Part shown: in pieces, positions 1 through 58,911 of the stretch
How positions within the stretch are numbered: position 1 is the stretch's first letter
How the letters are laid out: the number at the start of each line of letters is the position of its first letter
Source of the DNA: a virus
DNA length: 58,911 bases
IMG/VR virus record: IMGVR_UViG_3300026316_000001
Span: 1-58,911 of that record
Direction: 5' to 3' (one strand)
Notes under the pieces: generated by a model
The model's database searches: none
The model's input: only the letters and a program-made list of their open reading frames with translations
Told to the model about the DNA's origin: nothing
Made by a program: the position numbers and the translations under genes

Positions 1-99
1 TCGCCGCCGGGCACCCACGGGTTCTCCCGTCGCGCGCTCGGGGTGGTGTGGATGCGGGCACGCAGCTCGCGGGCCAGCTCCTCCAGGGCGTACCGCAGG
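1..99. repeat. Left copy of an exact 99-bp terminal direct repeat (= 58813..58911); circular-assembly overlap or terminal redundancy
   Basis: 1-99 (tcgccgccgggcaccc...ggcgtaccgcagg) is identical base for base to 58813-58911. Confidence 0.95.
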
Positions 100-13861: not shown

Positions 13862-14986
13862 TCAGCTCAGCGGCGCGTACGCGCGCAGCTTGATCGACAT
13901 GTCCGACCCTTCACGCAGGGGCAGCGTAAAGCCGGTGATGCACTGGGTGCTGGTGATCCCATCCCCTGTGATCGTGAGGATATCGCCCAGCTCCAGCGAC
14001 GGGTCCGGGGTGATCCGCAGGTCATCGAAGTTGACCGTCAGCGCCTTGCTGGACTGAAGCACGGTCTTGGCCGCCGCCGCGCACTGCGCCTGCGTGAGCG
14101 GTACCTGGTTCTGGATCTGGCGCACGCGCCTGCCCAGCGGGCCACCGTAGCGGGTCGGCGAGTTCAGCACCGTATCCCGCGCGATGGCGTACGCGCCGGC
14201 CGCACCCTGGCGCTCGGCCGAGTAGACGATCGCGTTGGCCACGCCCTGCCTGGTGACGGTCATCTTGTAGTCGGTCACGATGTCCTGGTCGCTCATGCTC
14301 AGCGCGGAACTCTGCCCCGGCTTCGTCCAGGGCAGCAGCCGCATCACGAAGGAGCCGTCCGGCAGCGGGTACCAGATCATGCCGGCGGCCGAGGCCACGT
14401 CATCCAGTGCCTTGCCTCGGTCAGACTCCCAGATCAACGCTGGCATGGTCGAGCTGGTCGCGTCGCTGGTGCCGAACGTCGGGTTGGTCAGCGCGCCCTT
14501 GATCAAGGTCTGGTACTGGGTGAGCAGCTTGACCCCGGCCGAGGAGTTGGTGGGCATCTCGAAGCCGGCGGCGATCACGTCAGCGGCCAGGTCGTACGCC
14601 CCCACCGCCACGTCGCCCTTCCTGGACAGCGACACGGTGTCCAGGTGGCCGGTGAAGACGGGGAAGCTGGACACGGAGCCGTCACCCCAGGCGATGCCCC
14701 GGTACACCTTGACCTGGTTGCCGAACGGAGACAGCGTGGCAGTGGTGTCGGGGGTGCCGTTGGCCAGCACCGGGAACCAGGAGCGATCCACGGTGAACCG
14801 CAGGGTGCGCGCCACGCGGGACTGCAGGGTCGCCTCGATGCTGCCGTCCACGAACGGCAGATCCTGCTTCACCAGGACGCCCGTGCTGTCCAGGATGTCC
14901 ATTCGGATGTAGGCGGTGTACCCGGCAGCGAGGGCCGCGCGGTATGTAACGTCGGTCCCGTCGCCGGAGACGCTTCTCCAGACCAT
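13862..14986 (-). CDS. Minor tail protein in the Tal/baseplate-hub position (374 aa)
   Basis: TGATG overlap with the upstream stop; MVWRSVSGDGTDVTYRAALAAGY; second gene after the tape measure. Confidence 0.6.
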   Translation of the reverse strand: MVWRSVSGDGTDVTYRAALAAGYTAYIRMDILDSTGVLVKQDLPFVDGSIEATLQSRVARTLRFTVDRSWFPVLANGTPDTTATLSPFGNQVKVYRGIAWGDGSVSSFPVFTGHLDTVSLSRKGDVAVGAYDLAADVIAAGFEMPTNSSAGVKLLTQYQTLIKGALTNPTFGTSDATSSTMPALIWESDRGKALDDVASAAGMIWYPLPDGSFVMRLLPWTKPGQSSALSMSDQDIVTDYKMTVTRQGVANAIVYSAERQGAAGAYAIARDTVLNSPTRYGGPLGRRVRQIQNQVPLTQAQCAAAAKTVLQSSKALTVNFDDLRITPDPSLELGDILTITGDGITSTQCITGFTLPLREGSDMSIKLRAYAPLS

Positions 14987-16908
14987 CAGGCCAGCGCCCC
15001 GTCCATGATCCCCTGCCAGCTCGTGGCGCCCTTGACCTGGTAATCCTCGACCAGCACGGTGATCGGTAGCGTGTTGGTGTTGCCGGTGTTCGCCCGCGCG
15101 TACACGCCATACGGCGCGGCAGCGGCCAGCGCGGCGTCCGTGGTGGCCACCGAGAACTCGACAGGCTCGGGGGTTCCGTCCTTCCAGCCGGAGACCTTCA
15201 GCGCGGTACCGGCGATCAAGGCATGGATGCGCCAGGTCTGGCCGGCTGCGTACGTCGGCCCGGCGACCGAGGCCACCACGGTCTCCACCGCCGCGACCCG
15301 CTTCGTCACGAAGATGAGGGTGGCGCCGGCCAGACCGAACTCGATCCCCAGGCGGTAGTAGTTGCTGGAGTCCACGTGCCGCGCCAGCACCGCCACCTGG
15401 TATCCCGCGCCGAGCGCCACCACGGGCGGGATGACGGTCAGGTACTGCTCGGTGTCCGCCGCCGAGCCGATGAACGCACGGTCCGAGGTGTTGACCGCCG
15501 ACAGCGCGATGACCCCCGCCGTGCCGTTGACAGACATGTCCGTCGTTATGCCGCCGAGGGTGTAGGTCGCCCCGCCACTCGGGGGGGCATCCGGCGCCCC
15601 CCAGGAGCCGGCGCCCACCGTGCGGCCGAACCCGTCGTAGGTACCGCCGTTGAACGCATACACGGCGCCCCAGGTGGCCGCATGGACGCACAGATCCTGC
15701 CAGCGCACACCCTGGACACCCTGCATCGGTCCGGCCGGCGAGAGGACCGTGGCGAACGGGAACGAGATCAGCCGGGCCGCCCGGCGCTGGTCGTTGAATA
15801 CGTACGACTCGCCGGAATTGCCGGGGAATACGTAGGCGTCGTCACGCCCGTACGCCGAGGGAAGCTGGAGCAGCAGCGACGAACCGGGAGCCAGCAGGGT
15901 CGCCAGGGCGCTCACGTCGGCGGCCGACCGGCCGAGCAGCCGCAAGCTGGATGTGGGCGCCTCGCGTAGACGCGACACCGGTACCGGATACGCCGAGTTG
16001 TTGACGTTGAACGTGGCCCCGTTGGCCGCCGAGGCACGATCGCCCAGGCCGAGGAAACCCACCCCCGAGGCGCGCGAGAAGTTGGGCCGGCGGCAGTCGA
16101 TCTGGATGTTGTTGCCCGGCCGCACCGGATCCTTCAGCCAGCCGTTGCCGTTGCTCGGGACGATCACCACCGAGCTGGTCACGCTCACGTTGACCGTGGT
16201 CGAGATCGTCGCCTCATCGATCCACCACGGGTTGCCGGCCGCCGGGGTACCGGGGTCGTTGGTCTTGATCCTGGCGAAGAGGGCGTTGGCCGGCGCGTTG
16301 TAGGCGATCGGCCCGTACTGCGTCCAGATGCCGGCCAGCAGCGCGGTGCTCACCGTGTTGGCCGAGATGAAGGCGTGGCCCGCGTCGAACCAGAAGATGC
16401 CGGCCACGCGGGTGGCGTTGGATGTGGTGCGCAGCCAGGCCCCGAAGGTGTAACTCTTCAGCGGGGTCACCGCGATCTCGTCGCTCTGCGCCTGCGGGAC
16501 GGCGGTTATTCCATCTGGAGTGATGAGGCCGGACCAGAGGCCCTGGTGCGCCTGCGAGTTGGTCACGGTGACGATGGCGTTGTTCTGCCCCGCCCACTGC
16601 CCCTTCGTGCCGTTCTCGAAGTACGGGTTGAGGTTCTGCACGACCAGCGCGGAGCCGGAGTTGTACGCGGCGGTGTACTGGAGCGGCACGTCCAGCGCCG
16701 CCTCGGTGTCGTAGAGCACCAGGCGGCCCAGCAGCGTCGTGGGCGCCCCGCTGCTGGTCGAGCCGTACGAGCGGACCACCGTGCTTACGCCGGTCAGGAG
16801 GTTGGTCCTGGTCACGGTCACGGCCGGCGCCATCACGTCGGACAGGTCGATGTCCAGGCGCACCTGCGCCCGCCTGCTGTCGACGGTGGCGACGATCGAG
16901 GACATCAC
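14986..16908 (-). CDS. Distal-tail (Dit)-position minor tail protein with carbohydrate-binding-like insertions (640 aa)
   Basis: GTGA overlap with the tape-measure stop; NPYFENGTKGQWAGQNNAIVTVTNSQAHQGLWSG looks CBM-like; C-terminal lectin-like region. Confidence 0.6.
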   Translation of the reverse strand: MMSSIVATVDSRRAQVRLDIDLSDVMAPAVTVTRTNLLTGVSTVVRSYGSTSSGAPTTLLGRLVLYDTEAALDVPLQYTAAYNSGSALVVQNLNPYFENGTKGQWAGQNNAIVTVTNSQAHQGLWSGLITPDGITAVPQAQSDEIAVTPLKSYTFGAWLRTTSNATRVAGIFWFDAGHAFISANTVSTALLAGIWTQYGPIAYNAPANALFARIKTNDPGTPAAGNPWWIDEATISTTVNVSVTSSVVIVPSNGNGWLKDPVRPGNNIQIDCRRPNFSRASGVGFLGLGDRASAANGATFNVNNSAYPVPVSRLREAPTSSLRLLGRSAADVSALATLLAPGSSLLLQLPSAYGRDDAYVFPGNSGESYVFNDQRRAARLISFPFATVLSPAGPMQGVQGVRWQDLCVHAATWGAVYAFNGGTYDGFGRTVGAGSWGAPDAPPSGGATYTLGGITTDMSVNGTAGVIALSAVNTSDRAFIGSAADTEQYLTVIPPVVALGAGYQVAVLARHVDSSNYYRLGIEFGLAGATLIFVTKRVAAVETVVASVAGPTYAAGQTWRIHALIAGTALKVSGWKDGTPEPVEFSVATTDAALAAAAPYGVYARANTGNTNTLPITVLVEDYQVKGATSWQGIMDGALA

Positions 16909-25444: not shown

Positions 25445-27181
25445 TCAGCCGGTCACCATGTTGGTGGTGGCCGAGGTGGTGCCGCTCGGGTCGATCGTCA
25501 TCTTGATCATGCGCGACTCGAAGCCCCGCTTGATCACCTGGATGCCGTCTTCCGTGAACAGCCGCACGTACTGGTTGAGCGCCAGGTTGGTGCTGTCGTA
25601 CACCGTGTCCAGGCGGATCACGTCGGCCACGCCACGCACCCAGGTACCGGCCGCGTACAGCAGCATGTAGAGCGTGGTGGGCAGGGTGTAGACCCCCGCA
25701 CTCTGACCGACCGTGGTCGCGGTGTTAGGGCTGCCGGTGCTGTTCAGCGCCTCCTGCCAGTCATAGACCCACTGGACCCGCGCGTTGCGCAGCGCGAACC
25801 ACGCTTCGATCTGGGACTGCGCCAGCTCGAAGGCGTCGTCGCGGTCCACGCCCATGCGCCGCTGCACGTCGGCGCGGATCGACTCGATCACCCAGAAGGG
25901 CAGCACGCACTCCAGGGTGGCCGCGAACGGCATCCGGTACTTGTACCGGTAGTCCATGATCTGGATGCCGGCGACGGCCAGCAGCCGCGACAGCGCGGTC
26001 AGATCCTTGAACTCGGTCGTGGTCACCGGCAGGTTGGTCACGTTGGTGTAGTCGAAGACCGTCGATCCGTTGGCCACCTTGTTGATGGCGAAGATGTTCA
26101 GCTTGCGCTTGTGCGCGACCATCGCACCCCGGATGAACCGCTCCACCACCTCCGGGTACCCCCGGTCCTGGAGGAAGGCCCCGGTGATCTGGACGCCCTC
26201 CACCTCCAGGCGGTTGTCCGTGAAGGACGGGCACGGCACGACCATCGTCGGCTTGGAGGTGGCCGCGACGACCTGCGCCTCCGTCTGGTGCCAGTAGCCG
26301 GCGCCACCGAAGATCGCGGAGAAGTCGGGACCAGGCGTGACCTGCACGCCGCCCCGGTGGATCTGCAACTCCGGCAGATCGAGCTGCCCGTCGTTGCCGT
26401 CCTCCAGCTCGAACAGGTCGTACAGGATCTCGCTGGGCGCGCACCAGCCGGCCGCCGCCGTCAGCGTGGCCAGGCCGGGATCCTTGGCCGCCGCGTCCAG
26501 CTTGGCCCACGCCTGCGTGAGCGTGTCTTCCTTGGTGATGCTCAGCTCAGCCGGGTACTCACGGCGAAGCTGGATGACGTTGGTCCGGTGGAAGGCACCC
26601 GGGCCGAGGTCGCCGAACGCGGCCATGGAGTCTTCCATGGTCTTGGCCATGCCCGCGAGGTCGTCGAACTCCTCGCCGGGCCGGCGGCCGGCCGCGCCGT
26701 TGGCCGCCAGCGCCTTGGTGTAGGACTGGCGGGCCTCTCCGGTGCCCACGTTCGGCCCGGTGGTCTGCGGCTGGCTACCGGCCGCCGCCGCGACCGCACC
26801 GACGCCGGGCGCGGTGACCTTCTCGCCGCCGTCCTTGTCGTCCTTGGCCGGCTCGGCCGGTGGGGTTCCCTCACTCGGCGGCGTGGAGGCCGCCGGCTGG
26901 CCGAATGCCGCCGCCGCCTTGCCGGCCCGGCCGGTCTTGTCGGCGCCCTGCTCGGCAGCCTTGGCGCGCTCCTCACGCTGATCCCCGACGCCCGCCACCA
27001 CGCCGGACAGTCGCTCCAGCGTGTTCAGCTCGTCGTCGGACAGGGGCTCGCCCTCGTTGTACTTCTTGACGATCGGATCGGCCGCCGCGCGGGCGACCTC
27101 GTCCAGCTCGTCAAGCTGCTCGTCGGTCACCACCGAGAAGTCGGTGGGGAGCTGGATCTCATCAATGGTCATGGTTGCCAT
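25445..27181 (-). CDS. Major capsid protein with an N-terminal scaffold/delta-like domain (578 aa)
   Basis: About 200 aa of acidic, low-complexity N-terminus, then AAAGWCAPSEILYDL...NQYVRLFTEDGIQV, capsid-like; no separate scaffold gene; hairpin follows. Confidence 0.6.
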   Translation of the reverse strand: MATMTIDEIQLPTDFSVVTDEQLDELDEVARAAADPIVKKYNEGEPLSDDELNTLERLSGVVAGVGDQREERAKAAEQGADKTGRAGKAAAAFGQPAASTPPSEGTPPAEPAKDDKDGGEKVTAPGVGAVAAAAGSQPQTTGPNVGTGEARQSYTKALAANGAAGRRPGEEFDDLAGMAKTMEDSMAAFGDLGPGAFHRTNVIQLRREYPAELSITKEDTLTQAWAKLDAAAKDPGLATLTAAAGWCAPSEILYDLFELEDGNDGQLDLPELQIHRGGVQVTPGPDFSAIFGGAGYWHQTEAQVVAATSKPTMVVPCPSFTDNRLEVEGVQITGAFLQDRGYPEVVERFIRGAMVAHKRKLNIFAINKVANGSTVFDYTNVTNLPVTTTEFKDLTALSRLLAVAGIQIMDYRYKYRMPFAATLECVLPFWVIESIRADVQRRMGVDRDDAFELAQSQIEAWFALRNARVQWVYDWQEALNSTGSPNTATTVGQSAGVYTLPTTLYMLLYAAGTWVRGVADVIRLDTVYDSTNLALNQYVRLFTEDGIQVIKRGFESRMIKMTIDPSGTTSATTNMVTG

Positions 27182-29464: not shown

Positions 29465-29625
29465 CGGCCGGACTCCTCGCTGCTGTCGTGCTCCTCGCCG
29501 GTCTCCTGGTCGCGGTACCGGGTGGATCCGCAACGCGGACACGTGTTCCAGATGAACGGGTACTGCACGACGCATCCGAGGCAGACACGCGGCAGCCGGT
29601 CTTCGGGCAGTGGCTGATCGGTCAC
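29461..29625 (-). CDS. Zinc-ribbon mini-protein (54 aa; below the ORF-track cutoff)
   Basis: GTGA overlaps at both ends; VTDQPLPEDRLPRVCLGCVVQYPFIWNTCPRCGSTRYRDQETGEEHDSSEESGR (CxxC...CxxC). Confidence 0.5.
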   Translation of the reverse strand: MTDQPLPEDRLPRVCLGCVVQYPFIWNTCPRCGSTRYRDQETGEEHDSSEESGR

Positions 29626-31052
29626 GAGACACCTACCACGGGTACGAAGGTGGTTGCTGTTCCGGAGGCGGTCGGGTCGAACGAGCCGGGGATCGCCGTC
29701 TGGCCGGACAGGATCGTACAGCGCCTCTTCGTGACCCCCACGCCAAGATCGAACCAGGGCGCGTGGGCGTCGTTGGCAGAGCTGAGGAACGGCACGTTGG
29801 GCGCGACCGTCATGCCCCGGTGAAGCGGCAGGATGTAGACGAACCGCCCGGCACCCTGGCTGGCCACGACACCGCCCGCGAGCGCACCGCCCCGCCAGCC
29901 GTTGCTCGTCCAGATGGACGGTGTCTCGGCGGTCGCGTCCACCAGTACCCCGGCATCAGTGAACAGGGCCAGCTTGTTGCCGGCCGTCGCGCCATCCCAG
30001 GTGCCGGCGTCCCGCACCCCGACGTGCAGGTTGGTGATCGCCACGCCGGCCGGAATCCACAGCCGCGTGGCGAAGATCGTGTTGTTGCCGAACGTCGAGG
30101 TGCCCATGTCCGACTCGGGATTGACCGAGCAGGCCAGCAGGCCATACCCGGCCAGCGGGAAGATCTGATCCATGCCCGAGCTACCGGCGGCCGGAGTCGC
30201 CCACTTGATTCCGCTGGCCTGCGTCGAGTCGGCGGTGAGCACCTGCGTGTTGGAGCCCACGCCCAGTCGGGCGGGGGTGCTGGCGCCAGTGGCCACGAAC
30301 AAGTCGCCCTTGGTGGTCAGCGTCGCCTTGTCGACCTTGGCCGCGAGGTCGGTGACCAGGCTGGTCACGTCCCCCTCGACGTGCCCGTGGCCGGTCGCCG
30401 ACTTGCCTGCCAGGCCGGGCACGGTCGGCGCGGCAGCGGTACCGGACAGGTCGCCCGCGAGCTGCACGACGCCCTTCGCGCCGGCCGTGGCGTCGCTGAC
30501 CGCCAGGGTCCGGTCAGCGGTCAGGTTCCCGCCGCCGGTCAGCGGCGCCGTGGTGTTGATCGAGCGGGTCAGCGGTACCCCGCCGCCTCCGCCGCTGCCC
30601 GCGTTGGCGAGCTGGGTCGCCGGCACCTGGCCGGCACCGTCGAGCGACGCCACGCCGTTGGCCTGCCCGAGCTGCGAGGCGAGCAGGTACGGGCTTAGCG
30701 CGACCACCGCCAGGTGCTGCAAGTTGCCCAGCTTGAACGGGGTACCGGCGGCCGGAAGCTGGATGATGTAGACCCGCACCGGGTAGCCGTCGACCGTCTC
30801 GCGAACCCAGTACCCCCAGCCGGTCGGCGTCAGGTCCGGATCGTCGGTGGCCATGAGGGTGACCGAGAACGCGCCGGCACCGTCCAGCGTCGCGGTCACT
30901 ACGCCGGGCTCCACGAGCTGCTTCGTGCCGGCATCGACAAGGACGGTGGTCGGCCAGAACTCGACCTTTCCGGTCGGTACCGCGCCGGCCGGCTGCGCAG
31001 CCGAGAACAGGCCGTTGACCACGACCTGGGTCACGTCAGCCGGGTACGACAC
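29622..31052 (-). CDS. Fibre-like protein encoded inside the head module (476 aa)
   Basis: GVASLDGAGQVPATQL, GVVQLAGDLSGTAAAPTV and Gly-rich linkers are typical of phage tail-fibre shafts. Confidence 0.6.
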   Translation of the reverse strand: MSYPADVTQVVVNGLFSAAQPAGAVPTGKVEFWPTTVLVDAGTKQLVEPGVVTATLDGAGAFSVTLMATDDPDLTPTGWGYWVRETVDGYPVRVYIIQLPAAGTPFKLGNLQHLAVVALSPYLLASQLGQANGVASLDGAGQVPATQLANAGSGGGGGVPLTRSINTTAPLTGGGNLTADRTLAVSDATAGAKGVVQLAGDLSGTAAAPTVPGLAGKSATGHGHVEGDVTSLVTDLAAKVDKATLTTKGDLFVATGASTPARLGVGSNTQVLTADSTQASGIKWATPAAGSSGMDQIFPLAGYGLLACSVNPESDMGTSTFGNNTIFATRLWIPAGVAITNLHVGVRDAGTWDGATAGNKLALFTDAGVLVDATAETPSIWTSNGWRGGALAGGVVASQGAGRFVYILPLHRGMTVAPNVPFLSSANDAHAPWFDLGVGVTKRRCTILSGQTAIPGSFDPTASGTATTFVPVVGVS

Positions 31053-33322: not shown

Positions 33323-33559
33323 CTACTGCTGGTCCGGGTCGTCGGGTACGTCGGCAGGATCATCCCACGCCTGGCGGGGCATCTTCTCGATCGCGGCGAC
33401 CTTGTCCTGAATGTCCGAGGGCAGGTCATCCCAGGTGGCCGCCTCGGGACCGCCGGCCGCCAGGTACGCCTGCTGGATCTCGAAGGCTTCGTCGGGGTGC
33501 ACGTCGTGGCCACCCAGCGCGTCGGACAGCCGGTGGTACAGGTCGGTCGTCGCGCTCAC
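33323..33559 (-). CDS. Acidic hypothetical protein (78 aa)
   Basis: GTGA overlap with the giant gene's stop. Confidence 0.55.
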   Translation of the reverse strand: MSATTDLYHRLSDALGGHDVHPDEAFEIQQAYLAAGGPEAATWDDLPSDIQDKVAAIEKMPRQAWDDPADVPDDPDQQ

Positions 33560-36500
33560 TGGGCCTCCTGGATGATCAGCACTGACCGGTTGAGCCAGTT
33601 GTACGCTTCCTTGCCCTTCTTGGACACGTGGTGCGAACTCATCGAGCGCTGCCCGTAGCTGACGGGGTCGATGCGGATGCCGTCCACACCCTTGGCGGCA
33701 GCGTACCGGCCCTGGTCATACAGGGTGCCGGTCTCGAAGCGGTTGCCCTTGGCGGCCGAGGTGGGCTTGGCGATGGCCGACGCCTCCCGGGCCATCTTCT
33801 CGTGCGTCTCGATCACCGCCGCCTTCGGAATCAAGATCCGCAGGACGCTGTTCCTGGTGTTGTCTGAGTACCGGTCGGCCACGTGCTTCTGCCCGGCCAG
33901 GTAGTACCCGTTACCGAAGACGCCCTTGCCGTAGTAGGCCGGGCCGCTGCGCATCTCCTCGTTGATCTTCTCGGCGCTCTTGCCGCCGGCACCGCTGACC
34001 CCACGCCATACCTCGATGTAGTCGCCCGTGGCCAGCAGGCGGTCCATCTCAGCCTTGCTGACGACGGTGGGCGTGTCATCGAAGCCCTGCATGGCGCCGA
34101 TCGCGGCCAGCCGGCCGTCCGCCGTCTTGCCGTCGTACTGCTTGCGCGCCTGCTTCACGTCCTGGCGCAGCTTGTCGATCGCTGCCTTGTCGGTCAAGAG
34201 GTTGCGTCCCGTCGATGGCTTGTGTGGCGTGGCCGGCTTGGGCACGCTGGGCGTCCCGGTCAGGCGCGGCAACTTCTTGGTGACCGGACCCGGGCGGCCC
34301 ACGCTCGGGGTGCCGGCCGGGTACAGGCTGACCACGTTGCGCTCCAGCGCGCCGCCGGCCAGCGGCCCGAGCAGCTTGCCGCTCTTGTCCAGCTTGCGGA
34401 TCTCGTCGATGGTCATCCACCTTGCGTCGGAGGTCTCCGCGCGGGCGTGGTGGGTCGAGAGATCCGGGGTGAGCTGGCTCGGCACCGTGGCGGCGATGGT
34501 CGTGTACTTCCACTCGCCGTTCTTCGGGCCGACCACGCCCTGAATGGTGAACACGTGCTCGCCGTGTACCCGGGCGCTGTCCAGGGCACCGGCCTTGAAT
34601 CCCAGCTCCTCGGTCGTCTCGCGGGTGGCGCCCTGGTGCGGCGTCTCCAGGGAGTCGATCGCGCCGCCGGGGAACTGCCACTTCCCGGGGTCGCTGATGC
34701 CCGGACCGCGCTCGATCATCAGATACCGCTCGGTGCCTGAGCTGTCGACGTGGCGCAGCATCACACCGGCCGCGCCGTACTTGCCCCATGGCCCGGACCC
34801 GCCGTTGACCTTGCGGGTGAACCCGTCGCCGCTCTGGCCCTTGCTGGTTGCCTGCTTCAGCATCCCGGGCCGTCCGCCGGGGTCGGGGTAGCGGTTCTGG
34901 CCGGCGACCGCGTTGGCCGGGACGTTGATCGGCTGGTTGGGGATTTGTCCGGGTGGGGTGCCGGGCGGGGTGAAGTAGTCGATCAGCTTCTGGGCGCGGG
35001 CGGCGTTGGTGCCGCCCTTCGAGGTGGTGACGATGTACGACAGGTCGCCCAGGAGCGTCGTCTGCTCGTGCGGCTGGAGGCTCTGGAAGTCAGCGGTCCG
35101 GATTCCCGCATACGCCTTGAGCTGCTGGGCGGTGGTGTGGGCCTTCGGGTGCACGCCGTAGAGCGTGTCCAGGACTTCCTGGACGTTGGGCCTGGCGCTC
35201 GTGGTGGCCGGCGCGGCGGGGGCGTGCGGCGAGACCCAGCCCGGGTGCAACTGAGCCATGATCTTGGCCCAGCCGGCGGGCTGGCTGGCACTTAGGCCGG
35301 TCACGCGCTCGTCGATGGCGTCGCGGTACGCCTTGGGCAGCTCGCCGTACTCCTTGCTGCTCAGTGGGTTCAGCGTGGTGAGCACGTCGCTGTCGCTGTG
35401 TCGGCCGTATGGGTCGGTGACCAGGATGGCGCGCTTCTGGTCACCGGAGCGCGGCGGCGTCACTCCCTTAAGGGCGTCGATGTGCCTCTGAATCTGGTGC
35501 CGATCACCGAGCGGCTCGGAACCTCCCGCGAGACTGGCCATGTCGGCGTCTACCAGGTGCTTGTCGCCGCCGTTGAGCTGCTGGTACGAGGAGTGATCTA
35601 GGGCCAGGTAGGTGCGCAGCCGGTCCGGGTCGTCGTGATCCGCCTTGTGGATGCCGGCAGCCAGCGCGGCGCTGAGCGCGGCACCCGAGGAGTAGGCCGG
35701 CAGCGTGCCGTCGAACTTGGCCTGGACGTGGTGAGCCATGTACCGCGTGTGCGCGTCGCTGGAATTGGCAGCCGTGGCGAGCTGGTGCTCGATGGCCGTC
35801 TGGTGCGCCTGCGGTAGCGCGTCAAAGTCCTTCTGGGACAGGTTCTGGTAGGCCGTGACCCGGCCCAGGTGGCTCTTCAGGTGGTCGTGTGTCGCGTCGA
35901 TCGCGGCCGTCTGCGCGGGGCCGTAGTGCGCGCCGTGGATCTTGTCTAGCATCACCTGGAAGCGACCACCATCCAGCCCGTTGGAGGCGTCGCGCACGGA
36001 CTCGACCGCCTTGACCAGCGCCTGCTGGGCATTCGGGCTCAGGTCGTGATACCGGTCCAGGTTGGGCTTGATCGCATCGGCGCCGAGGACCACGGCGATA
36101 GTGCTCCGCTGGTTGCCTGCCCCGAGCAGGCTCAGCACGCTTTCGTTGCGTCGCTCCTTGATCGCCTCCTGGAGTACGGGCGCGAGTTTCTTCAGCTCGT
36201 CGTCGCTGGGCGCCAGGAGATCGTCGAGCTGGTACGTGGTCGCGTACCACTTCCCGCTGTTACTCGGTTGCATGGTGGCCACGGCCAGGGCTTCGCGCAC
36301 GTCGGTGCCGCCGGCCGTCTTGTACCCGGGGGCCCCGGTGTGCAGCCGAGCACGCAACCAGGCCGGCAGCGTGGTGTCAGCCTCCAGGGCAGCGCGATGC
36401 GCCTCCAGGGCGTCGCGTCGCTCCGGGGTCTGCGCGGCTATCCGCGCGCTCATGTAGCGATTAGCGATATCCGCCGGGTCGGTGGCCGCCTTCAGGTTGT

Positions 36501-38451
36501 CCAGCTCGCTGAACAGGACCGAGGCGTCGTGCTTGCCGGTACCGCCCTTGTCCTCGAAGCGCGCGATCAGGGCATCAGCCGCCGCCCGCTTCTTGGGGTC
36601 GAGGAACTTCGCCCGCGCGGCGTCGAGATCGTCACGGATCTTGGTCTGGGTGGCCGGTGCGAGGCTGTCGAACTCAGCCCGGGTGAGCTTGCCGTAGGCG
36701 TCCACGTGGGTCTTGGATAGCGCCGCGCCGGGTGCCGACCGGCTGGCCACGGACGCGGCGTGCTTCACGTGGGCAGCGGCGGTCGCGGGCAGCGGAGCGC
36801 TGGGCGTCGGGCCGGCCGCCGGCTTCGCGCTCGGCGCAGGCGTTCCCGTACCGGTGCCGAACAGGCGCGAGTGGATCGTAGCCGCCTTCTGGCTGACGAA
36901 GCCCTGACCCGGACTGCCGGCAAGGCCACGCAAGCCCTTGAGATCGCTCTCCAGAAGGTACTGCTCGTTATCGGTGAGGCTGGCCAGGTCGGCTTTGGTC
37001 AGGTTGTCGTACGCGGCCAGGCGCTTGGCATCCGGCATGGTGGCCAGGCCCTTGAGCGCGACGCGGGCCTGGATGATCGAGATCGGCGAGGACGCGGGCG
37101 CCCCCACGGCGGTGTTCGGGACACCGGCTACCGGCGGTCGCTTGAGCGCATCCTGGACACCCTGCGGCACGCCCGGGGTACCAGCCTCGACGTGGTTGGT
37201 GATCTCGGTGTGCAGCGCGCCGCGCTCTTTGTCGGTCAGCCCCTTCTTGTCCCCAACGTTCTTAACCAGGTTGGTGATCGACTTCTGGACCTCGGGGTGA
37301 TCGGTGAGCTTGTCGCCTGGCCCCTGTTTGCCCTTGATCTTGGTCAGGGCGCCCTTGAGCGTGTCCGGCCCCACGTTGGTCTTGCCCTGGATCGCCACCA
37401 CCACGTCATGCAGTGCCTGGGCCTGGGCGGCAAGCTTCTGGTCGGTGAGCTGCGCGGCGCGGACCGGCACGTTGGTCTTCACCTGGCCGGCGATGTTGGA
37501 CACCACGTCCTTGGCGCCCTGCACGGTCGGTGGAGTGAAGCCGGGCTGGGCCTGGCCGGCGCCCGGCGCGGTGTACGTGATGTCCTTGAGCAGGCTCTTG
37601 GGTACCGGCTTGCCCTGCGCCTTCAGGGCTGCGATCTTGGCCCGTCGTCGTTCGTTCAGCTTCTCGACGCGGGTCTTCTCGTAGGCGTGGTACGCCCCCG
37701 GGGCTACGGCGTGCAGGGTGTGCTTCCAGCCTTTGCACGGGCCGGGGTGCAGCGGGTTGCGGCAGAACTCGCCGACCTCGCAGCCCCAGTGCGCGGCAGC
37801 GACCAGGGCATATAGGGCGAACTGGAAGGGCTGGCCGAGCGCGTACAGCGCGACCTCGTCCATCCACATGGAGTGATGCGCGCGAGCGCGCGGGTGCCGG
37901 GCAGCCGCCTTGTGCAGCGCCTGACGCTTGACCTGTGCGTTGGCCCGCGTGACGGCCGCCGACTGCCGTGCCGCGTTGGCCTGGTCGATGGCCGTATTCC
38001 GCGCCTCCGCGCTGTCGTGACGCTGCTGAAGCCTGGCATGAAGCTGGTCGGCGCGGGCTACCGCGCGCCCGTGCTGGTGCAGCGCGTGGGCGTAGTCGGT
38101 GGCCGCCGCCTGCACTCTCGCGTGTCCCTGGTTGGCGCCGAGCTGCTGGGCGAGCTGTTGGGCGTGCTGGTAGGCGGCGGCGTACCCGCCCTGTGCGGCC
38201 TGCTCCAGGTCGGACTGCTGGCGGGTCTTCGCGGCCGGCGCCACCGGTACCGCGACATGTGGCCGCTGGTAGGGCTGGACCTGCTGCTGTTGGGCGCCTC
38301 CACGCTTGACCCCGGCACAGACGCCGGGCTTGTGGGTGGCCAGGCAGTACGCGCCACCATAGAGCTGGCCGGCGTCCTGGCACGAGGCGTGCTCGTCCAC
38401 CTGGAGGGAGCGAGCCGCATCGAGACCGTACAGCTCGGCGATCTCGCTCAC
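33556..38451 (-). CDS. Giant head-module protein (1,631 aa): Cys/His N-terminus, repeated helical modules, Nudix hydrolase domain, ART/PARP-like C-terminal domain
   Basis: GTGA overlap with the MuF stop; Nudix box GAIDSLETPHQGATRETTEELGF (34597-34665); C-terminus EVWRG...GKGVFGNGYYLAGQKHVADRYS...VLRILIPKAAV. Confidence 0.75.
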   Translation of the reverse strand: MSEIAELYGLDAARSLQVDEHASCQDAGQLYGGAYCLATHKPGVCAGVKRGGAQQQQVQPYQRPHVAVPVAPAAKTRQQSDLEQAAQGGYAAAYQHAQQLAQQLGANQGHARVQAAATDYAHALHQHGRAVARADQLHARLQQRHDSAEARNTAIDQANAARQSAAVTRANAQVKRQALHKAAARHPRARAHHSMWMDEVALYALGQPFQFALYALVAAAHWGCEVGEFCRNPLHPGPCKGWKHTLHAVAPGAYHAYEKTRVEKLNERRRAKIAALKAQGKPVPKSLLKDITYTAPGAGQAQPGFTPPTVQGAKDVVSNIAGQVKTNVPVRAAQLTDQKLAAQAQALHDVVVAIQGKTNVGPDTLKGALTKIKGKQGPGDKLTDHPEVQKSITNLVKNVGDKKGLTDKERGALHTEITNHVEAGTPGVPQGVQDALKRPPVAGVPNTAVGAPASSPISIIQARVALKGLATMPDAKRLAAYDNLTKADLASLTDNEQYLLESDLKGLRGLAGSPGQGFVSQKAATIHSRLFGTGTGTPAPSAKPAAGPTPSAPLPATAAAHVKHAASVASRSAPGAALSKTHVDAYGKLTRAEFDSLAPATQTKIRDDLDAARAKFLDPKKRAAADALIARFEDKGGTGKHDASVLFSELDNLKAATDPADIANRYMSARIAAQTPERRDALEAHRAALEADTTLPAWLRARLHTGAPGYKTAGGTDVREALAVATMQPSNSGKWYATTYQLDDLLAPSDDELKKLAPVLQEAIKERRNESVLSLLGAGNQRSTIAVVLGADAIKPNLDRYHDLSPNAQQALVKAVESVRDASNGLDGGRFQVMLDKIHGAHYGPAQTAAIDATHDHLKSHLGRVTAYQNLSQKDFDALPQAHQTAIEHQLATAANSSDAHTRYMAHHVQAKFDGTLPAYSSGAALSAALAAGIHKADHDDPDRLRTYLALDHSSYQQLNGGDKHLVDADMASLAGGSEPLGDRHQIQRHIDALKGVTPPRSGDQKRAILVTDPYGRHSDSDVLTTLNPLSSKEYGELPKAYRDAIDERVTGLSASQPAGWAKIMAQLHPGWVSPHAPAAPATTSARPNVQEVLDTLYGVHPKAHTTAQQLKAYAGIRTADFQSLQPHEQTTLLGDLSYIVTTSKGGTNAARAQKLIDYFTPPGTPPGQIPNQPINVPANAVAGQNRYPDPGGRPGMLKQATSKGQSGDGFTRKVNGGSGPWGKYGAAGVMLRHVDSSGTERYLMIERGPGISDPGKWQFPGGAIDSLETPHQGATRETTEELGFKAGALDSARVHGEHVFTIQGVVGPKNGEWKYTTIAATVPSQLTPDLSTHHARAETSDARWMTIDEIRKLDKSGKLLGPLAGGALERNVVSLYPAGTPSVGRPGPVTKKLPRLTGTPSVPKPATPHKPSTGRNLLTDKAAIDKLRQDVKQARKQYDGKTADGRLAAIGAMQGFDDTPTVVSKAEMDRLLATGDYIEVWRGVSGAGGKSAEKINEEMRSGPAYYGKGVFGNGYYLAGQKHVADRYSDNTRNSVLRILIPKAAVIETHEKMAREASAIAKPTSAAKGNRFETGTLYDQGRYAAAKGVDGIRIDPVSYGQRSMSSHHVSKKGKEAYNWLNRSVLIIQEAQ

Positions 38452-39335
38452 CTGACGAACCTCCTGGACAGATCCAGATGCTCGCCGGGTCGCAGCAGCA
38501 CCTGCGAGCATCTGCATTGGATCACTTCTTCAGGTAGAGCGACAGGCCCGCGCGCCCCGGGGTGATCCAGCAGGGCCTGGCCCACCGCGAACGGCTCATC
38601 CAGGGGTACGCGCTGGCCGGTGCCGGGGGTACCGAGGTCGGCCGCGAGGTGGGTCGGGCGTACCCGCTCGTCGTGGGTGGCCAGCCAGCCGTGTTCCCAT
38701 TCGCCGCCGAGCTGGGCCGCGTAAGACTGGAAGCCGGCGTGCGTGCCGGCGTTGTAGGCACCGATGGCCTCGGTGCGCGCCACCACCAGCGCGCGGTTCT
38801 TCCAGGTGGCCACCTCGTTGTCGGAGAGCACGGTCTCGATCCGGGCGGCCAGCTCGCCGATCGCGGCGCCCTCGTGGTGAGCCTTGGCGACCTCGCTGGT
38901 GATGAGGGTGTAGACCTCGTCCGGCACGTTGGCCAGTCGGTTCTTGGCCACTTGCAGGTAGCTCTCGACGCGGCCGGGCGGCAGCGGCGCGGCGAGCATC
39001 ACGTCGTGCCAGGCGCTCTGGTAGATCTCGCGGATCTCCACATCGATCACGTCGCCGAGCGCGAGACGGAACGCGGGCGCGGCGGCGAAGACGGCCGGCG
39101 GGTCCACCACCCGCCCGTGGACAACCCGGTCCCGAACGCCATCGATCCACTTGGAGAGCATCCCGAGGTAGGAGCGGAACAGCGAACGCTCTGCCTTGAC
39201 CATCTGGGCGAAGCGCCGCCAGCGGATCGGCAGCCACGGATCCGGCGCGGTACCGGCCAGCGCCACAGCGCCCACCGCGACGGCGGTACCGGCGCCCGGC
39301 CCGGTCGGCTGTTGAGGCTGCTCGGGCTGGGTCAC
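38448..39335 (-). CDS. MuF/SPP1 gp7-like head morphogenesis protein (295 aa)
   Basis: GTGA overlap with the portal stop; NRALVVARTEAIGAYNAGTHAGF...WLATHDERVRPTHLAADG = Phage_Mu_F pattern. Confidence 0.75.
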   Translation of the reverse strand: MTQPEQPQQPTGPGAGTAVAVGAVALAGTAPDPWLPIRWRRFAQMVKAERSLFRSYLGMLSKWIDGVRDRVVHGRVVDPPAVFAAAPAFRLALGDVIDVEIREIYQSAWHDVMLAAPLPPGRVESYLQVAKNRLANVPDEVYTLITSEVAKAHHEGAAIGELAARIETVLSDNEVATWKNRALVVARTEAIGAYNAGTHAGFQSYAAQLGGEWEHGWLATHDERVRPTHLAADLGTPGTGQRVPLDEPFAVGQALLDHPGARGPVALPEEVIQCRCSQVLLRPGEHLDLSRRFVR

Positions 39336-41287
39336 TGCGCCGCCCGCTCCAGCACCACGCGCAGCAGCTCCGGGCGGTGCTCCACGCCACGCAGCAGCAG
39401 CTCCGTGCAGTACTCGCGCAGCACGTACTCCAGGTCGTTCTCCGGCACGTTGACGTGCGCGGCGAGCTGGGCCAAGTGTGCCCATGCCCCGGTCAGCAGC
39501 TCGCCGGCATGGTCGCGGTCGCGCGGTCGGATGCGGGTGTGGATGCGGAACTTCGGCACGTCGGCGTGCTGGCCCCGGGAGGCCCGGTCCAGCAGCCGGC
39601 CGCCGGCCATCTCCAGCGCGCGGTAGACGACCTGCTCGGCGCCGGGCAGCAGCGCGGCCAGGTTGATCGCGGCGGCGTGCTGGGCCACCAGCTCGGCCAC
39701 GCCCGAGGCGGCCAGGGCTTGCCGGCGGCCACGCTGCGCCGGGCTGGTCTGGCCGACCGGCATGTCGGGGATCGCGCCCATCGGGCCGCCGGTATCGTCC
39801 GGCGGCGGCTGGTCGGTGGGGTACTGGTCTGGCGGCAGCGCGCCTTCCGGGGCGGCCGGTGCCGGCGGCTGAAGGCCGGCGCTGATGACGGCCGTCGGAA
39901 CGCCGAGCACCTGCGCGACACCGGGCGCGGCGATCAGCGCCGGGTTGAGCTTGCAAAGCTGCCAGAGCTGCCACTGGAGCATCTGCTTCTGGTTCTGCTT
40001 GTCGCCGTCCTCGAACGCGCCGGCCGCACGCAGCGCCTCATCGTTGATCAGGCCCCGGTCCCAGAGGTTCTGGGCGTCCTCCATGCGGTTGGGTCGCACG
40101 GTCAGCGGGCTGGTGTCGTACCAGAGGGTGAACTTCTCCGGGTCCTTGCCGAGCACCTTCAGGGCCGGCTGAAGGTAGGCCTCCGTAAAGGCGTCACAGA
40201 CCCGTACCAAAACGGGCTCAATGAACAGCTTTATGGACGATTCCTCTATCTGCCAGCTCCCCCAGTGGTTGGCCTCGCCCTGCCCGAGGAGGTCTTCCGG
40301 GGCGATGTCCAGGCCGAGCGCCAGCCGGCGGATAGCCTGGTCGAGCTTCTGTTGCAGCTCGGCCGTCAGCGGGGTGTCGAACTTGATGTGAGCGAAGGAC
40401 TGCGAAACGTTGTCGTAGCGGCCCTCGCCGGTCGGCACGGTGGCCAGGATCGGCACCAGACCGGCAGCCGTGCCGGCCCCGGTGAGCTGGGCACGGGCCG
40501 ACTCCAGGATCTGATCCAGCAGACCCTGCACGCCGCCGGCCTTGTCCTCCGCGTGCGGGAAGTCCACGCCCTCGCGCAGCAGCAGCAGCCCGGCCGAGAT
40601 CAGCCGCGAGTCGATCTGGCTGAAGCAGAGCTGGGTCAGCCGCTCGATCTCACGCAGGATCGGCAGGACCGAGCGCGCCGGAGAGTCGGCCTGGTCGAAC
40701 AGGCGCGGGTGCGGCGTCCACACCCGCATGAGGATGTCGGTGCCCTTCTTCAGGGCTCGCCGGCCGCCGCCGATCGTCATGGGTCGCTTGACGAAGATCG
40801 TGTTGCCTTCGCGGGCCAGCTCCTTGGCGCTGGCCACGTACCACTTGTCACCGTCGGCCCGGCTGCCACCCTCGGCGACGACGAAGCACTCGCCGGCTAC
40901 GTAGTTCTGGATACCGATGGTGCGCAGGCCTTCGCCCTTGGCCGCCGGGCCACCGAAGATCGACTCCGCCAGCACCTGAATCTGCGGATCTGCGGACTCC
41001 TTGCCGGGGCGACCCCGCTCGTCCAGCTCGGCCACGTACAAACGGCAGCGCGACAGCGCGCCTGCATGTCGATTGGCCACGAAGCGGAACTCACCGTTGA
41101 TGTCGTAGTGCCGCCACGCCTCCTGCTGCCACTCCAGGTCGCGGATGCGCAGAGACTCGCTGGACTGGCCTTCCAGCCGGACCTGGCTGGCCGCCGCGAT
41201 GATCGACGGCAGTCCCCGATACTCCTCGACGGCCGCCGGGAGCAGGTCGCGCACAGCGGCCGGGGTGCGCCGGAGCAGTCGGGCCAC
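39332..41287 (-). CDS. Portal protein (651 aa)
   Basis: Size and position between terminase and MuF; RVWTPHPRLFDQADSPARSVLPILREIERL is typical of actinophage portals. Confidence 0.8.
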   Translation of the reverse strand: MARLLRRTPAAVRDLLPAAVEEYRGLPSIIAAASQVRLEGQSSESLRIRDLEWQQEAWRHYDINGEFRFVANRHAGALSRCRLYVAELDERGRPGKESADPQIQVLAESIFGGPAAKGEGLRTIGIQNYVAGECFVVAEGGSRADGDKWYVASAKELAREGNTIFVKRPMTIGGGRRALKKGTDILMRVWTPHPRLFDQADSPARSVLPILREIERLTQLCFSQIDSRLISAGLLLLREGVDFPHAEDKAGGVQGLLDQILESARAQLTGAGTAAGLVPILATVPTGEGRYDNVSQSFAHIKFDTPLTAELQQKLDQAIRRLALGLDIAPEDLLGQGEANHWGSWQIEESSIKLFIEPVLVRVCDAFTEAYLQPALKVLGKDPEKFTLWYDTSPLTVRPNRMEDAQNLWDRGLINDEALRAAGAFEDGDKQNQKQMLQWQLWQLCKLNPALIAAPGVAQVLGVPTAVISAGLQPPAPAAPEGALPPDQYPTDQPPPDDTGGPMGAIPDMPVGQTSPAQRGRRQALAASGVAELVAQHAAAINLAALLPGAEQVVYRALEMAGGRLLDRASRGQHADVPKFRIHTRIRPRDRDHAGELLTGAWAHLAQLAAHVNVPENDLEYVLREYCTELLLRGVEHRPELLRVVLERAAQ

Positions 41288-41873: not shown

Positions 41874-43364
41874 CTAACCCGGGTAGCCGGGCAGCCGCGC
41901 GCCGAGTGGACCCAGCGAGGTGCGCCCGGGTAGCGGTGCCCTGGCCGGGCTCGCCGTGGTGGCGAACATCTTGACCCGCGAGGTCAGCCACAGCAGGGCG
42001 TACACAAGCGCGTCGATACGGTCCGGGCTCTTGGAGGTCTCCTCCGGCACCCAGTTGACCATCTGGGTCTCCAGGTTGCCGAGGTTCTGGCCGCGCACGT
42101 GGGAGACGTAGCCCTGCTCGTAGCGTGCGGCGACCGGTTCGGCGCGCAGCCGCTTGCCGATCTTGGCGGTGACCATCTTGACCGGCGGGTTGCCTCCAGG
42201 TGGAAACAGCCCCTCATCCTGCATCTCGCGGTAGGCCCGGACCAGCACCTCGCGCAACCAGCGCTTGCCCTGGTTGTCCTCGACGATCAGGACGCTCGCG
42301 CCGTACTCGATCACCATCGTCCAGGCCCGGCGTGCGGCGGCGTGCCCGACGATGCGCTTGCTCCAGTCGCCGAGCACGTAGTCCCGGCCGTCCACGCCCT
42401 TGCCGGCGGCGATCAGTCCGCACTCGTCGGAGGTCGGGTCGTCGGCGCCGGGTGGGTCCATGCCCACGACCACGTTGGTCAGCTCGGGCGGGCGGGCCGC
42501 CCGGTACGGCTCGATCATGCCGAGGCCCCAGAGGGCGCCCTCGGCCTCCATGATCAGCTCGCCGCCCAGCTCCTGGCGCCCCAGCCGGGTACCGGCGTAG
42601 CGCTTGTGCAGCTCGGCCAGCGCGGGTGCGGCCAGGTTGCCGGCGTTCTCGTACGTGGAGCCTCGGGTCAGCCAGACCGACCCGTCCGCACGGCCCTGCC
42701 ACTCCACGAGCTGCACGACCAGCTTGGGCGTGGTGGTGACCAGAGCGCGCGGGAAGTCGCCGGGGATGTCCGCACGCAGGCCCGGCATGATGCCCTCGGT
42801 CCACGACCCGTCAGGCTTCTTCCACTTGGCGAACTCATCCAGCCAGGCCGAGGCCGCGTTGTACCCGCGCCCCACGTCCTCGTCGTCGGCGCCCTCGATG
42901 TAGATCACCTGATGGTGATCGAAGATCTCGATGAACGGCTTGGGGCTCTTGATCAGGTGCCAGGCACCGCCGTCCCGGCCGTCCGTGTACCTGGACTCAG
43001 ACCCCAGCCGCCGCTCCAGCACCCGGCGCACGCCGGCCGGGCCGCCGATGCACTGGCGCATGGCGTCGGTCAACGTCTCGGCGATCAGCAGGTGCTCGGT
43101 AGGCCGGCCGGTCAGGTCCAGCGGGTACCGGATCGCCCGGTCCACGATCCACTCGGCGCCGGTCTGGGTCTTGCCCCAGCCCCGGCCGGTCTGGATGAGC
43201 CAGACGAACCACTTGCCGGCCGGCGTCTGTTGCTCGGGTCGGCCGATCCACCACCACTCGCGGCGGGCCATCTGCTCCAGCACGTGCACCGGCTGCTCGG
43301 CCAGCCAGCGCGCCTGCACCTCGGGGGAGAGCCGGGCCAGCTCCTCCATCGGTGATCGCGCCAT
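41874..43364 (-). CDS. terL: Terminase large subunit (496 aa)
   Basis: Walker A-like QTGRGWGKTQTG; ATPase and nuclease-sized; followed by the portal. Confidence 0.85.
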   Translation of the reverse strand: MARSPMEELARLSPEVQARWLAEQPVHVLEQMARREWWWIGRPEQQTPAGKWFVWLIQTGRGWGKTQTGAEWIVDRAIRYPLDLTGRPTEHLLIAETLTDAMRQCIGGPAGVRRVLERRLGSESRYTDGRDGGAWHLIKSPKPFIEIFDHHQVIYIEGADDEDVGRGYNAASAWLDEFAKWKKPDGSWTEGIMPGLRADIPGDFPRALVTTTPKLVVQLVEWQGRADGSVWLTRGSTYENAGNLAAPALAELHKRYAGTRLGRQELGGELIMEAEGALWGLGMIEPYRAARPPELTNVVVGMDPPGADDPTSDECGLIAAGKGVDGRDYVLGDWSKRIVGHAAARRAWTMVIEYGASVLIVEDNQGKRWLREVLVRAYREMQDEGLFPPGGNPPVKMVTAKIGKRLRAEPVAARYEQGYVSHVRGQNLGNLETQMVNWVPEETSKSPDRIDALVYALLWLTSRVKMFATTASPARAPLPGRTSLGPLGARLPGYPG

Positions 43365-58722: not shown

Positions 58723-58911
58723 GATCCGCTCTCTGTCCTTTCGTCGGGTTCGGGCTGCGCCAGCAGGTTCTCGGCGACCACCAGGGCGGTCATCAACTTG
58801 CCGTCCGTGAACTCGCCGCCGGGCACCCACGGGTTCTCCCGTCGCGCGCTCGGGGTGGTGTGGATGCGGGCACGCAGCTCGCGGGCCAGCTCCTCCAGGG
58901 CGTACCGCAGG
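58719..58911 (-). CDS. 3' part of the junction-spanning small CDS (starts at 107 after circularisation)
   Basis: In frame with 1..107 through the 99-bp repeat; ...GEFTDGKLMTALVVAENLLAQPEPDERTESGS, TGA at 58721..58719. Confidence 0.6.
   Translation of the reverse strand, partial: LRYALEELARELRARIHTTPSARRENPWVPGGEFTDGKLMTALVVAENLLAQPEPDERTESGS
58813..58911. repeat. Right copy of the exact 99-bp terminal direct repeat
   Basis: Identical to 1-99. Confidence 0.95.

Follow-up and report, generated by a model that had tools for sequence, protein, structure and literature searches.

The locus described here raises the question of what a phage encodes in a 1,631-amino-acid (aa) protein placed among its head genes, and whether that protein joins two modules of nicotinamide adenine dinucleotide (NAD) and ADP-ribose (ADPr) metabolism in one polypeptide. 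The window, i.e., the whole stretch of DNA analysed, comprises positions 1 to 58,911 of IMG/VR virus record IMGVR_UViG_3300026316_000001 (58,911 nucleotides, nt). The gene in question, referred to here as the large gene, lies at 33556..38451 (1,631 aa plus a stop codon); all genes, domains and motifs of the window given below are on its minus strand. A first-pass annotation of this DNA had proposed that the product carries a Nudix hydrolase box followed by a C-terminal domain resembling ADP-ribosyltransferases (ARTs) and PARPs. We found that residues 1207-1380 are a genuine, folded Nudix domain with an intact catalytic box, and we conclude that the C-terminal domain, residues 1439-1631, most likely has a very divergent ART fold; it would belong to the H-Y-[EDQ] lineage, with ART-PolyVal as its nearest relative, and it falls outside every curated family model.

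A RenU-like Nudix domain with an intact catalytic box

The Nudix domain (34312..34833; Pfam core, residues 1241-1353) was recovered by Pfam, PHROG, comparison with RenU and Foldseek. Pfam NUDIX (PF00293) matched residues 1241-1353 with 53.8 bits against a cut-off of 21.1 (E=2.7e-14), and phrog_1198, 'MutT/NUDIX hydrolase', matched the domain at 1.9e-16. The Nudix box is complete and was found exactly where it had been proposed (34597..34665), as G1263-x5-E1269-x7-R1277-E1278-T-x-E1281-E1282-x-G1284-F1285, with the catalytic G/E/R/E/E/E/G positions unchanged in 39/39 homologues. At the 'U' position of the box, T1279 here, the same 39 homologues have V in 26, T in 11 and I in 2, and the Thr reads as a sub-family variant.

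The nearest solved protein was M. smegmatis RenU (6uuf), which matched by sequence at E=9.1e-15, as compared with 1.2e-6 for the next PDB match, in an alignment of about 150 residues that takes in the N-terminal GDG(W/F)...WG.xGAAG extension. In a two-domain AlphaFold model, the Nudix part showed block values of the predicted local distance difference test (pLDDT) mostly of 79-93, with one loop block at 66. Foldseek of the Nudix model ranked 6uuf_A first (E=3.6e-11, TMt 0.83, root-mean-square deviation 2.6 A, 31% identity over about 173 columns), and the best 50 of the 317 PDB matches at E<=1e-3 were all Nudix enzymes or Nudix-fold domains. The box thus lies in a confidently modelled Nudix fold with RenU as its best match, and not in a disordered or non-Nudix region.

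RenU hydrolyses ADP-ribose, flavin adenine dinucleotide (FAD) and NADH, and not NAD+ (PMC4401782). Since RenU is the closest homologue, an ADPr/NADH-type specificity can reasonably be expected from homology, and the Nudix module would most likely yield AMP and a phospho-sugar from dinucleotides of the ADP-ribose type, be it ADPr, NADH, FAD or ADPr-derived signals.

Two observations concern Nudix domains and head proteins more generally. A gene of Arthrobacter phage Mufasa8 (3757-3927) has a Nudix box similar to that of the window protein; of its two records, MN586027.1 labels it portal, and the RefSeq copy NC_049478.1 labels it MutT/NUDIX hydrolase. A cultured phage would thereby provide an instance of a head protein that bears a Nudix domain. 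The window protein also matches phrog_15528, 'portal protein', at profile positions 541-577.

The ART-like fold of the C-terminal domain

The C-terminal domain (33559..34137) was delimited by AlphaFold2 modelling, Foldseek, the Pfam matches of its relatives and conservation. The motifs EVWRGV, GKGVFGNGYYLA, VLRILIPK and YNWLNRSVLII are all present in it, and coincide, far beyond chance, with the most conserved columns of a large family. An AlphaFold2 model of residues 1439-1631, built with 66 homologues, gave a pLDDT of 93.6 and a predicted template modelling (pTM) score of 0.89, and displayed six main strands with interleaved helices. The placement of the motifs fits this model, in which, by domain numbering, beta1 (40-46) bears R45 and beta2 (77-81) bears Y79.

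When this model was compared with the PDB by Foldseek, the best 50 matches were all catalytic domains of PARP1, PARP2 or PARP3. Against BFVD, the list was headed by uncharacterised members of the family itself, all from phages (E 7e-11 to 1e-6, template modelling (TM) score 0.6-0.66), followed by a dozen 'PolyVal ADP-ribosyltransferase'/ART-PolyVal proteins (E 1e-4 to 1e-2, TM about 0.4) and one 'PARP catalytic domain' phage protein. A 1,479-aa protein of Gordonia phage GodonK and a 763-aa protein of Bacillus phage SP-15 were among the BFVD neighbours, and are candidates for cultured carriers of the domain. Against PDB sequences, the family profile gave only sub-threshold matches; 26/27 of these were ARTs, including an ADP-ribosylating toxin at E=0.17. 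In these alignments, the Y-R-G of the diphtheria-toxin homologue 7rb4 falls on the W-R-G of the C-terminal domain, and tankyrases align at the G-x-G-x-Y-F-A...Y motif. A Pfam scan of 37 domain-only relatives matched ART-PolyVal in 7/37 (best E=4.7e-4) and PARP in 3/37 (best E=4.3e-3), and no other family more than once.

Because these four lines agree, namely PDB Foldseek, BFVD Foldseek, the profile against PDB sequences and the Pfam matches of relatives, the domain was assigned to the ART superfamily, and we are largely confident that residues 1439-1631 share the ART fold. The earlier proposal, an ART/PARP-like C-terminus with Arg in place of the first His, stood: all structural and profile neighbours are ARTs, and Foldseek on the AlphaFold model finds both PARPs and ART-PolyVal for the C-terminal roughly 190 aa. 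For the window sequence taken alone, the ART evidence is weak. The PDB Foldseek scores are low (best E=1.4e-2, probability 0.92, TM about 0.38), the window domain has no Pfam ART match even at E<=10, and the last 174-232 aa alone gave nothing in Pfam, PHROGs, NCBIfam or a PDB sequence search. Matches of the C-terminus to 'Fag s 1' and TXNIP (E 0.05-0.3) were put down to chance, and hhalign against the window's own MuF protein showed no relation, which set aside a MuF-type domain at this position.

Active-site signature of the ART-like domain

Conservation was counted over 238 domain instances. On strand 1 (beta1), R1483 is kept in 226/238 and G1484 in 227/238, with His at the R1483 position in 3/238; R1501 is kept in 206/238. 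Strand 2 (beta2) bears Y1517 (228/238) at the end of G-x-G-x-F-G-N-G-Y-Y1517, which in the family reads G-x-G-x-x-G-N-G-x-Y, and position 1528, a Tyr here, is aromatic in 223/238. R1538 on strand 3 (beta3) is R in 184 and K in 38 of 238. The motif D-x-G-R-x-A-A-A-x-G-Y-D contributes D1579 (204/238), R1582 (192/238) and D1590 (192/238). After beta5 follow N1621 (N in 192 and D in 42 of 238), R1622 (233/238) and S/T1623 (S here; 198/238). From HMM/hhalign alignments and the modelled strands, R1483-G1484, Y1517 and Y1528 correspond to H862-G863, Y896 and Y907 of PARP1. Both Tyr residues fall, by hmmsearch and hhalign, on the GIYFA...Y motif of tankyrases and PARPs. The hhalign comparison of the family profile with a PARP1 catalytic sequence aligned the beta2 motif only (24 columns, probability 8.5%), and was used solely for the Y1517/Y1528 equivalence and not for homology.

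The position equivalent to PARP1 E988 (domain residue 178), placed by pattern and secondary structure rather than by superposition, is variable: A in 57, Q in 29, E in 27, F in 21 and Y in 20 of 238. Five residues further on, N/D-R-[ST] is kept. The elements of the nicotinamide pocket (R-G in strand 1, GNGxY in strand 2 and the stacking Tyr that follows) thus appear to be retained, and the canonical catalytic acid appears to be missing. Since the strand-5 acidic residue is not conserved, transferase activity of the domain is no more than possible. Active mono-ARTs lacking the Glu exist, such as the H-Y-I/L PARPs, and the strong conservation of polar residues over the 238 instances argues for a ligand or catalytic site.

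An alternative is that the domain is an ART-fold pseudo-enzyme that transfers no ADP-ribose. It would be a sponge, a sensor or a targeting module for NAD+, ADPr, a signal derived from ADPr or a protein of the host, and the Nudix domain would be left as the sole catalyst. Such a domain would be expected to lack, as this one does, a conserved Glu, Asp or Gln at the catalytic position of strand 5, and to have lost the strand-1 His, here changed to Arg; it also stays under every curated ART threshold, and the tandem multi-copy arrays of some relatives would suit stoichiometric binding. We nevertheless consider this rather unlikely, though it is the strongest of the competing explanations, as the invariant polar R1483, R1538, N1621, R1622, D1579 and D1590 exceed what binding alone usually needs, and Glu-less mono-ARTs can be active. 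Moreover, the Asp found at N1621 in 42/238 may equal the strand-5 Asp of H-Y-D ART-PolyVal (PMC5512222).

A large family with a conserved Nudix fusion

A profile search of 1.84 billion cluster representatives recovered 1,369 proteins at E<=1e-3, of which 598 reached E<=1e-10; this sets the size of the ART-like family at no fewer than 1,369 clusters at 50% identity. The family is marked by R-G, by GNGxY with a further Tyr after it, and by N-R-[ST]. It has no Pfam or PHROG model of its own, and a PHROG scan of 37 family domains gave only one weak 'minor head protein' match and one weak match to a family of unknown function. Among 209 fetched family proteins, 43 carry a Nudix domain directly N-terminal of the ART-like domain. 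As these fall into about 40 distinct 50% clusters, the fusion is a conserved architecture and not a one-off; all the fusion proteins are 700-1,900 aa long.

The segment between the two domains of the window protein (residues 1381-1438; 34138..34311) is predicted to be disordered at 1381-1406 and then helical. In the two-domain model, this tether has a pLDDT below 50 for model residues 187-212, and the pTM was 0.51. A fixed Nudix/ART interface was looked for in this model and rejected; since the tether is disordered and the pTM is 0.51, no composite site can be claimed, and the two modules look like independent beads.

The close pairing invites the idea that the two modules act in sequence, the ART-like domain ADP-ribosylating a host target and the Nudix domain then cutting the adduct to leave a phosphoribosyl mark that resists macrodomain/ARH erasers. 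Some Nudix enzymes (NUDT16, RppH) turn protein-ADPr into phosphoribosyl-protein and provide a precedent, and in about 40 clusters the Nudix domain is always found next to the ART-like one. The NAD+ donor would be preserved, given that enzymes of the RenU type act on ADP-ribose by preference and leave NAD+ intact (PMC4401782). We give this idea little credence, as the model predicts a disordered tether instead of a composite active site, the majority of family members have no Nudix domain, and the transferase activity is itself unproven. In addition, sequence cannot separate free from conjugated ADPr as the Nudix substrate.

Other relatives place the ART-like domain in further combinations. Some carry 2-5 tandem copies; the domain is fused to the MuF-class Phage_min_cap2 in P0084 and P0121 and to a portal in another relative, and elsewhere it is paired with matches to 2H phosphoesterases, another class of enzymes acting on ADPr metabolites. 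The domain also occurs as a short protein encoded shortly after portal and MuF, distant relatives thus taking up the slot of the large gene: P0019 follows TerL, portal and a 301-aa gene. In a 61-kb metagenomic phage (L006:2713-11983), the order is portal, MuF, a 270-aa gene, the family protein P0189 and a 274-aa gene with a weak ADPrib_exo_Tox match, and then 583-aa and 100-aa genes and a 715-aa Peptidase_S78_2 plus Zeta_toxin fusion; this locus looks like a cluster of putative capsid cargo enzymes. The sole ART-like match in 50,697 phage records was a short one, to a hypothetical protein of Bacillus phage SP-15, and was obtained with a distant relative as the query.

Two further contigs deserve mention. 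On a 96-kb phage contig carrying P0165 (L004), there are genes for a HIT-domain protein, close to the terminase, and for a Tad2-like protein of the anti-Thoeris sponge family (4329-4709, 13004-13044). On a 28-kb contig (L005:3254-8546), the orthologous large gene is spread over three frames of 1,167 aa, 584 aa and a 390-aa open reading frame (ORF), the last called as the 181-aa P0010; either frameshifts in the assembly or a gene that is truly in pieces could account for this.

The N-terminal 1,200 residues

Residues 1-1,200 of the large protein contain no known domain. A Gln/Ala-rich N-terminal extension (residues 1-195; 37867..38451) is common, among the fetched relatives, to P0030 only. It is followed by a conserved N-terminal module (residues 200-300; 37552..37854) with a near-invariant motif, H-x2-C-x6-C-R-N-P-L-H-P-G-P-C-K-G-W-K (residues 221-245; 37717-37791). 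This motif, FCRNPLHPGPCKGWK, forms an H/C/C/H/C pattern and stands at the N-terminus in most relatives, being N-terminal in about 20 family proteins including the short, Nudix-less P0067, P0097 and P0126. The pattern matches no Pfam family, and the module may be a Zn-binding element (Zn knuckle) or a capsid-targeting element.

The Ala-rich middle region (residues 456-1160; 34972..37086) contains at least 7 copies of a motif of about 30 aa, (A)Y..L...(D)F..L......I...L, which is short and helical-looking. The last repeat copy (about residues 1050-1195) is kept in all Nudix-bearing relatives.

The large gene in the head module

The ORF containing the large gene spans 33556-38517. Its GTG start (38451-38449) overlaps the TGA (38450-38448) of the upstream MuF-like gene as GTGA, with GGAGG about 10 nt 5' of the start. 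Independent gene callers gave the same 1,631-aa product, both P0024 and the ENA/Logan gene call being identical to it, and third-position GC was 0.76-0.93 throughout the gene, the N-terminal extension included, which is coding-like. The translational coupling to the MuF-like gene that the first-pass annotation described is borne out by these data, as is the position in the head module. On the minus strand, TerL (41874-43364; Pfam Terminase_6N and 6C), the portal (39332-41287; phrog_776, 4.9e-140) and the coupled 295-aa MuF-like minor head protein gene (38448..39335; Pfam Phage_Mu_F, 6.1e-11) precede the large gene. It is followed by a small acidic 78-aa ORF, a gene call that overlaps the large-gene stop (33323..33559), a 704-aa protease-like gene between this ORF and the major capsid protein, the major capsid protein itself (25445-27181), the major tail protein and the tape-measure protein.

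The 78-aa ORF has no PHROG match. It was considered as an immunity gene and set aside, its likeness to a 64-aa ORF after P0019 being a by-eye motif only, and a role as inhibitor or chaperone is speculation only. It carries a W-DDLPSDIQDKV element resembling the repeat motif of the middle region of the large protein. Elsewhere in the window, a 476-aa ORF (29622-31052) with tail-fibre-like and collagen-like PHROG matches occupies an unusual place between the protease-like gene and the major capsid protein, and a 640-aa ORF directly after the tape-measure gene (14986-16908) matches a 'phosphodiesterase' PHROG (phrog_24476, 5e-32).

An exact 99-nt direct terminal repeat is present at window positions 1-99 and 58813-58911. 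This marks the window as a complete phage genome, circularly closed or terminally redundant, in which 58,812 nt are unique. With a GC content of about 69%, it is the genome of an uncultured high-GC siphovirus. No deposited phage turned out to be closely related to it at the DNA level, and the identity of its terminase to known ones does not exceed 38.5%. The same genome sequence is present in ENA and Logan metagenome assemblies.

Proposed role of the large protein

MuF-fused or MuF-adjacent enzymatic domains, ARTs and Nudix domains have been treated as head-packaged effectors (PMC5512222, PMC9503650, PMC5576092). The large protein has the make-up of a polyvalent-type protein, in that it unites two unrelated effector-type domains and its gene stands among head genes, with MuF on one side and the protease-like and major capsid genes on the other. 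On balance we lean, with modest confidence, towards the view that it is a head-packaged cargo of the polyvalent/MuF-associated type, which would bring into the host, as infection begins, an ADPr-type pyrophosphatase together with an ART-like module that uses NAD+.

According to this proposal, the protein would be made with the head-morphogenesis genes and placed in the procapsid beside MuF and portal, probably by way of the conserved N-terminal module, and would enter the host together with the DNA. Its C-terminal 430 residues would then act as two independent modules on a disordered tether. The RenU-type Nudix domain, with its intact Mg-binding REx2EE box, would cleave ADPr-type dinucleotides, and the ART-like domain may bind NAD+ and then either ADP-ribosylate a host macromolecule or hydrolyse NAD+. 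Because of four or five conserved arginines, the target is possibly a nucleic acid or a phosphate-bearing substrate. The Nudix module would dispose of, or pre-empt, ADPr-type products and immune signals. A role against NAD/ADPr-dependent defence and the cooperation of the two modules are what we infer from these features.

Several points weigh against this proposal. Virion packaging and ejection are inferred from gene context and the fusions of relatives, and the low-complexity N-terminal 1,200 residues could have a mainly structural or scaffolding role. Among 50,697 phage records searched by megablast and tblastn, no cultured phage with this protein was found, the window query giving Nudix matches only. 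The specificity of a Nudix domain cannot be read from its sequence. ADPRases have a proline about 16 residues after the Nudix box; no such proline was seen on inspection of the window sequence, and the substrate class consequently follows from the homology to RenU only.

An alternative is a protein that is not ejected, but serves as a head-assembly or scaffold-like factor, or as a late cytoplasmic enzyme. Its Nudix and ART-like domains would then act in the cell that produces the phage, for example to quiet NAD/ADPr-dependent abortive infection during morphogenesis. The gene sits at the scaffolding/assembly slot, with MuF before it and the protease-like gene after it, and Ala/Gln-rich, repetitive sequence makes up about 1,200 residues of the product; Iyer et al. 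2022 raised the possibility that head-linked ARTs act against immunity directed at the packaging apparatus (PMC9503650, section 3.7.1). This explanation appears improbable to us, as relatives are fused to virion components (MuF-class minor capsid proteins, portal), and the N-terminal module is common to otherwise different family proteins, suggesting a common incorporation signal.

Beyond the packaged-cargo proposal that we favour, a more far-reaching one can be put forward, which we regard as a long shot. The R-Y-N-R ART-like domain would represent a catalytic clade of capsid-delivered enzymes not recognised before, and its fixed linkage to a Nudix domain of the RenU type, seen in about 40 phage lineages, would serve either to 'write then cut' or to capture and destroy ADPr-derived immune signals such as those of Thoeris. 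In the 'write then cut' form, a host protein or nucleic-acid phosphate would be ADP-ribosylated and the pyrophosphate then cut to an eraser-resistant phosphoribosyl mark. Either form, if true, would be a mechanism not yet described for phages.

Novelty and significance

The concept of head-packaged NAD/ADPr enzymes and that of polyvalent proteins are already published, and the finding is therefore less unprecedented than had been implied at first. The combination of Nudix and ART in one protein had been called an uncharacterised arrangement, and this agrees with the literature consulted: Iyer et al. 2022 described head-associated ARTs and Nudix domains separately, and viral Nudix domains as 'typically standalone' (PMC9503650). 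As far as the literature searched shows, three aspects are new, namely an ART-fold family with an R-Y...N-R signature that has no Pfam or PHROG model, its size together with its near-absence from isolates, and its conserved fusion to a RenU-type Nudix domain.

Many of the systems by which bacteria resist phages have NAD+/ADP-ribose chemistry at their core, as does the take-over of the host by phages. The ART-like family occupies the slot where phages keep injected cargo, and one sub-lineage is permanently joined to an ADP-ribose-type pyrophosphatase. If the ART-like domain is active, it would represent a new clade of first-minute effectors for actinobacterial phages, in which the coupling of an ADPr 'writer' to a 'cutter' could be put to the test. 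An inactive domain would mean that a pseudo-enzyme binding NAD/ADPr is widespread in capsids, likewise a result of interest.

Comparison with known systems

The Nudix domain shares with RenU the N-terminal extension, the overall structure (TMt 0.83) and an intact REx2EE box. RenU itself, a cellular enzyme of 17 kDa under the control of PknG and L13, stands alone (Wolff et al. 2015, PMC4401782), whereas the domain described here is part of a 1,631-aa phage head-module protein.

As for the C-terminal domain, PARPs (PF00644; PARP1/2/3 and tankyrases) are its best structural matches in the PDB, and their G-x-G-x-[YF]-G-x-G-x-Y-F-A...Y motif aligns with it. In contrast to PARPs, it has Arg for the strand-1 His, no conserved catalytic Glu and no helical regulatory domain, and it adds the family-specific D-x-G-R-x-A-A-A-x-G-Y-D helix and N-R-[ST].

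By analogy only, Legionella SidE also joins an ADP-ribosyl-transferring fold and a pyrophosphate-cleaving enzyme in one delivered effector. The sequential action considered above would follow a logic similar to this pairing of a mono-ART with a phosphodiesterase. The phosphodiesterase fold of SidE is unrelated, and its target is eukaryotic ubiquitin. The MuF polymorphic toxins/effectors and T4 Alt (Jamet et al. 2017, PMC5576092; Iyer 2017, 2022) are alike in tying an enzymatic cargo to the MuF/portal module, and relatives of the C-terminal domain are fused to MuF-class proteins. Unlike in MuF toxins, MuF is here a separate upstream gene and no immunity gene was identified; unlike T4 Alt, the C-terminal domain is not of the Alt/VIP2 R-S-E type.

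ART-PolyVal (PF18760, Tox-ART-HYD2 clade; PMC5512222) stands closest. The triad here is R-Y-(N-R-S), as compared with H-Y-D in ART-PolyVal (PMC5512222), with the Y kept and no conserved strand-5 Asp, and the TM of about 0.4 to ART-PolyVal compares with 0.6-0.66 to uncharacterised members of its own family. In the one Pfam match inspected, the relative P0098 scored 16.4 bits against a cut-off of 31.2, over profile positions 8-56 of 140. Nevertheless, ART-PolyVal is the only Pfam family matched by several relatives, and the ART-PolyVal proteins in BFVD are structural neighbours of the domain. Both probably share the ART fold, and both occur in phage late-gene and virion contexts and in one or several copies per protein, tandem ART-PolyVal copies having been reported in phage and plasmid polyvalent proteins (Iyer et al. 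2017, PMC5512222).

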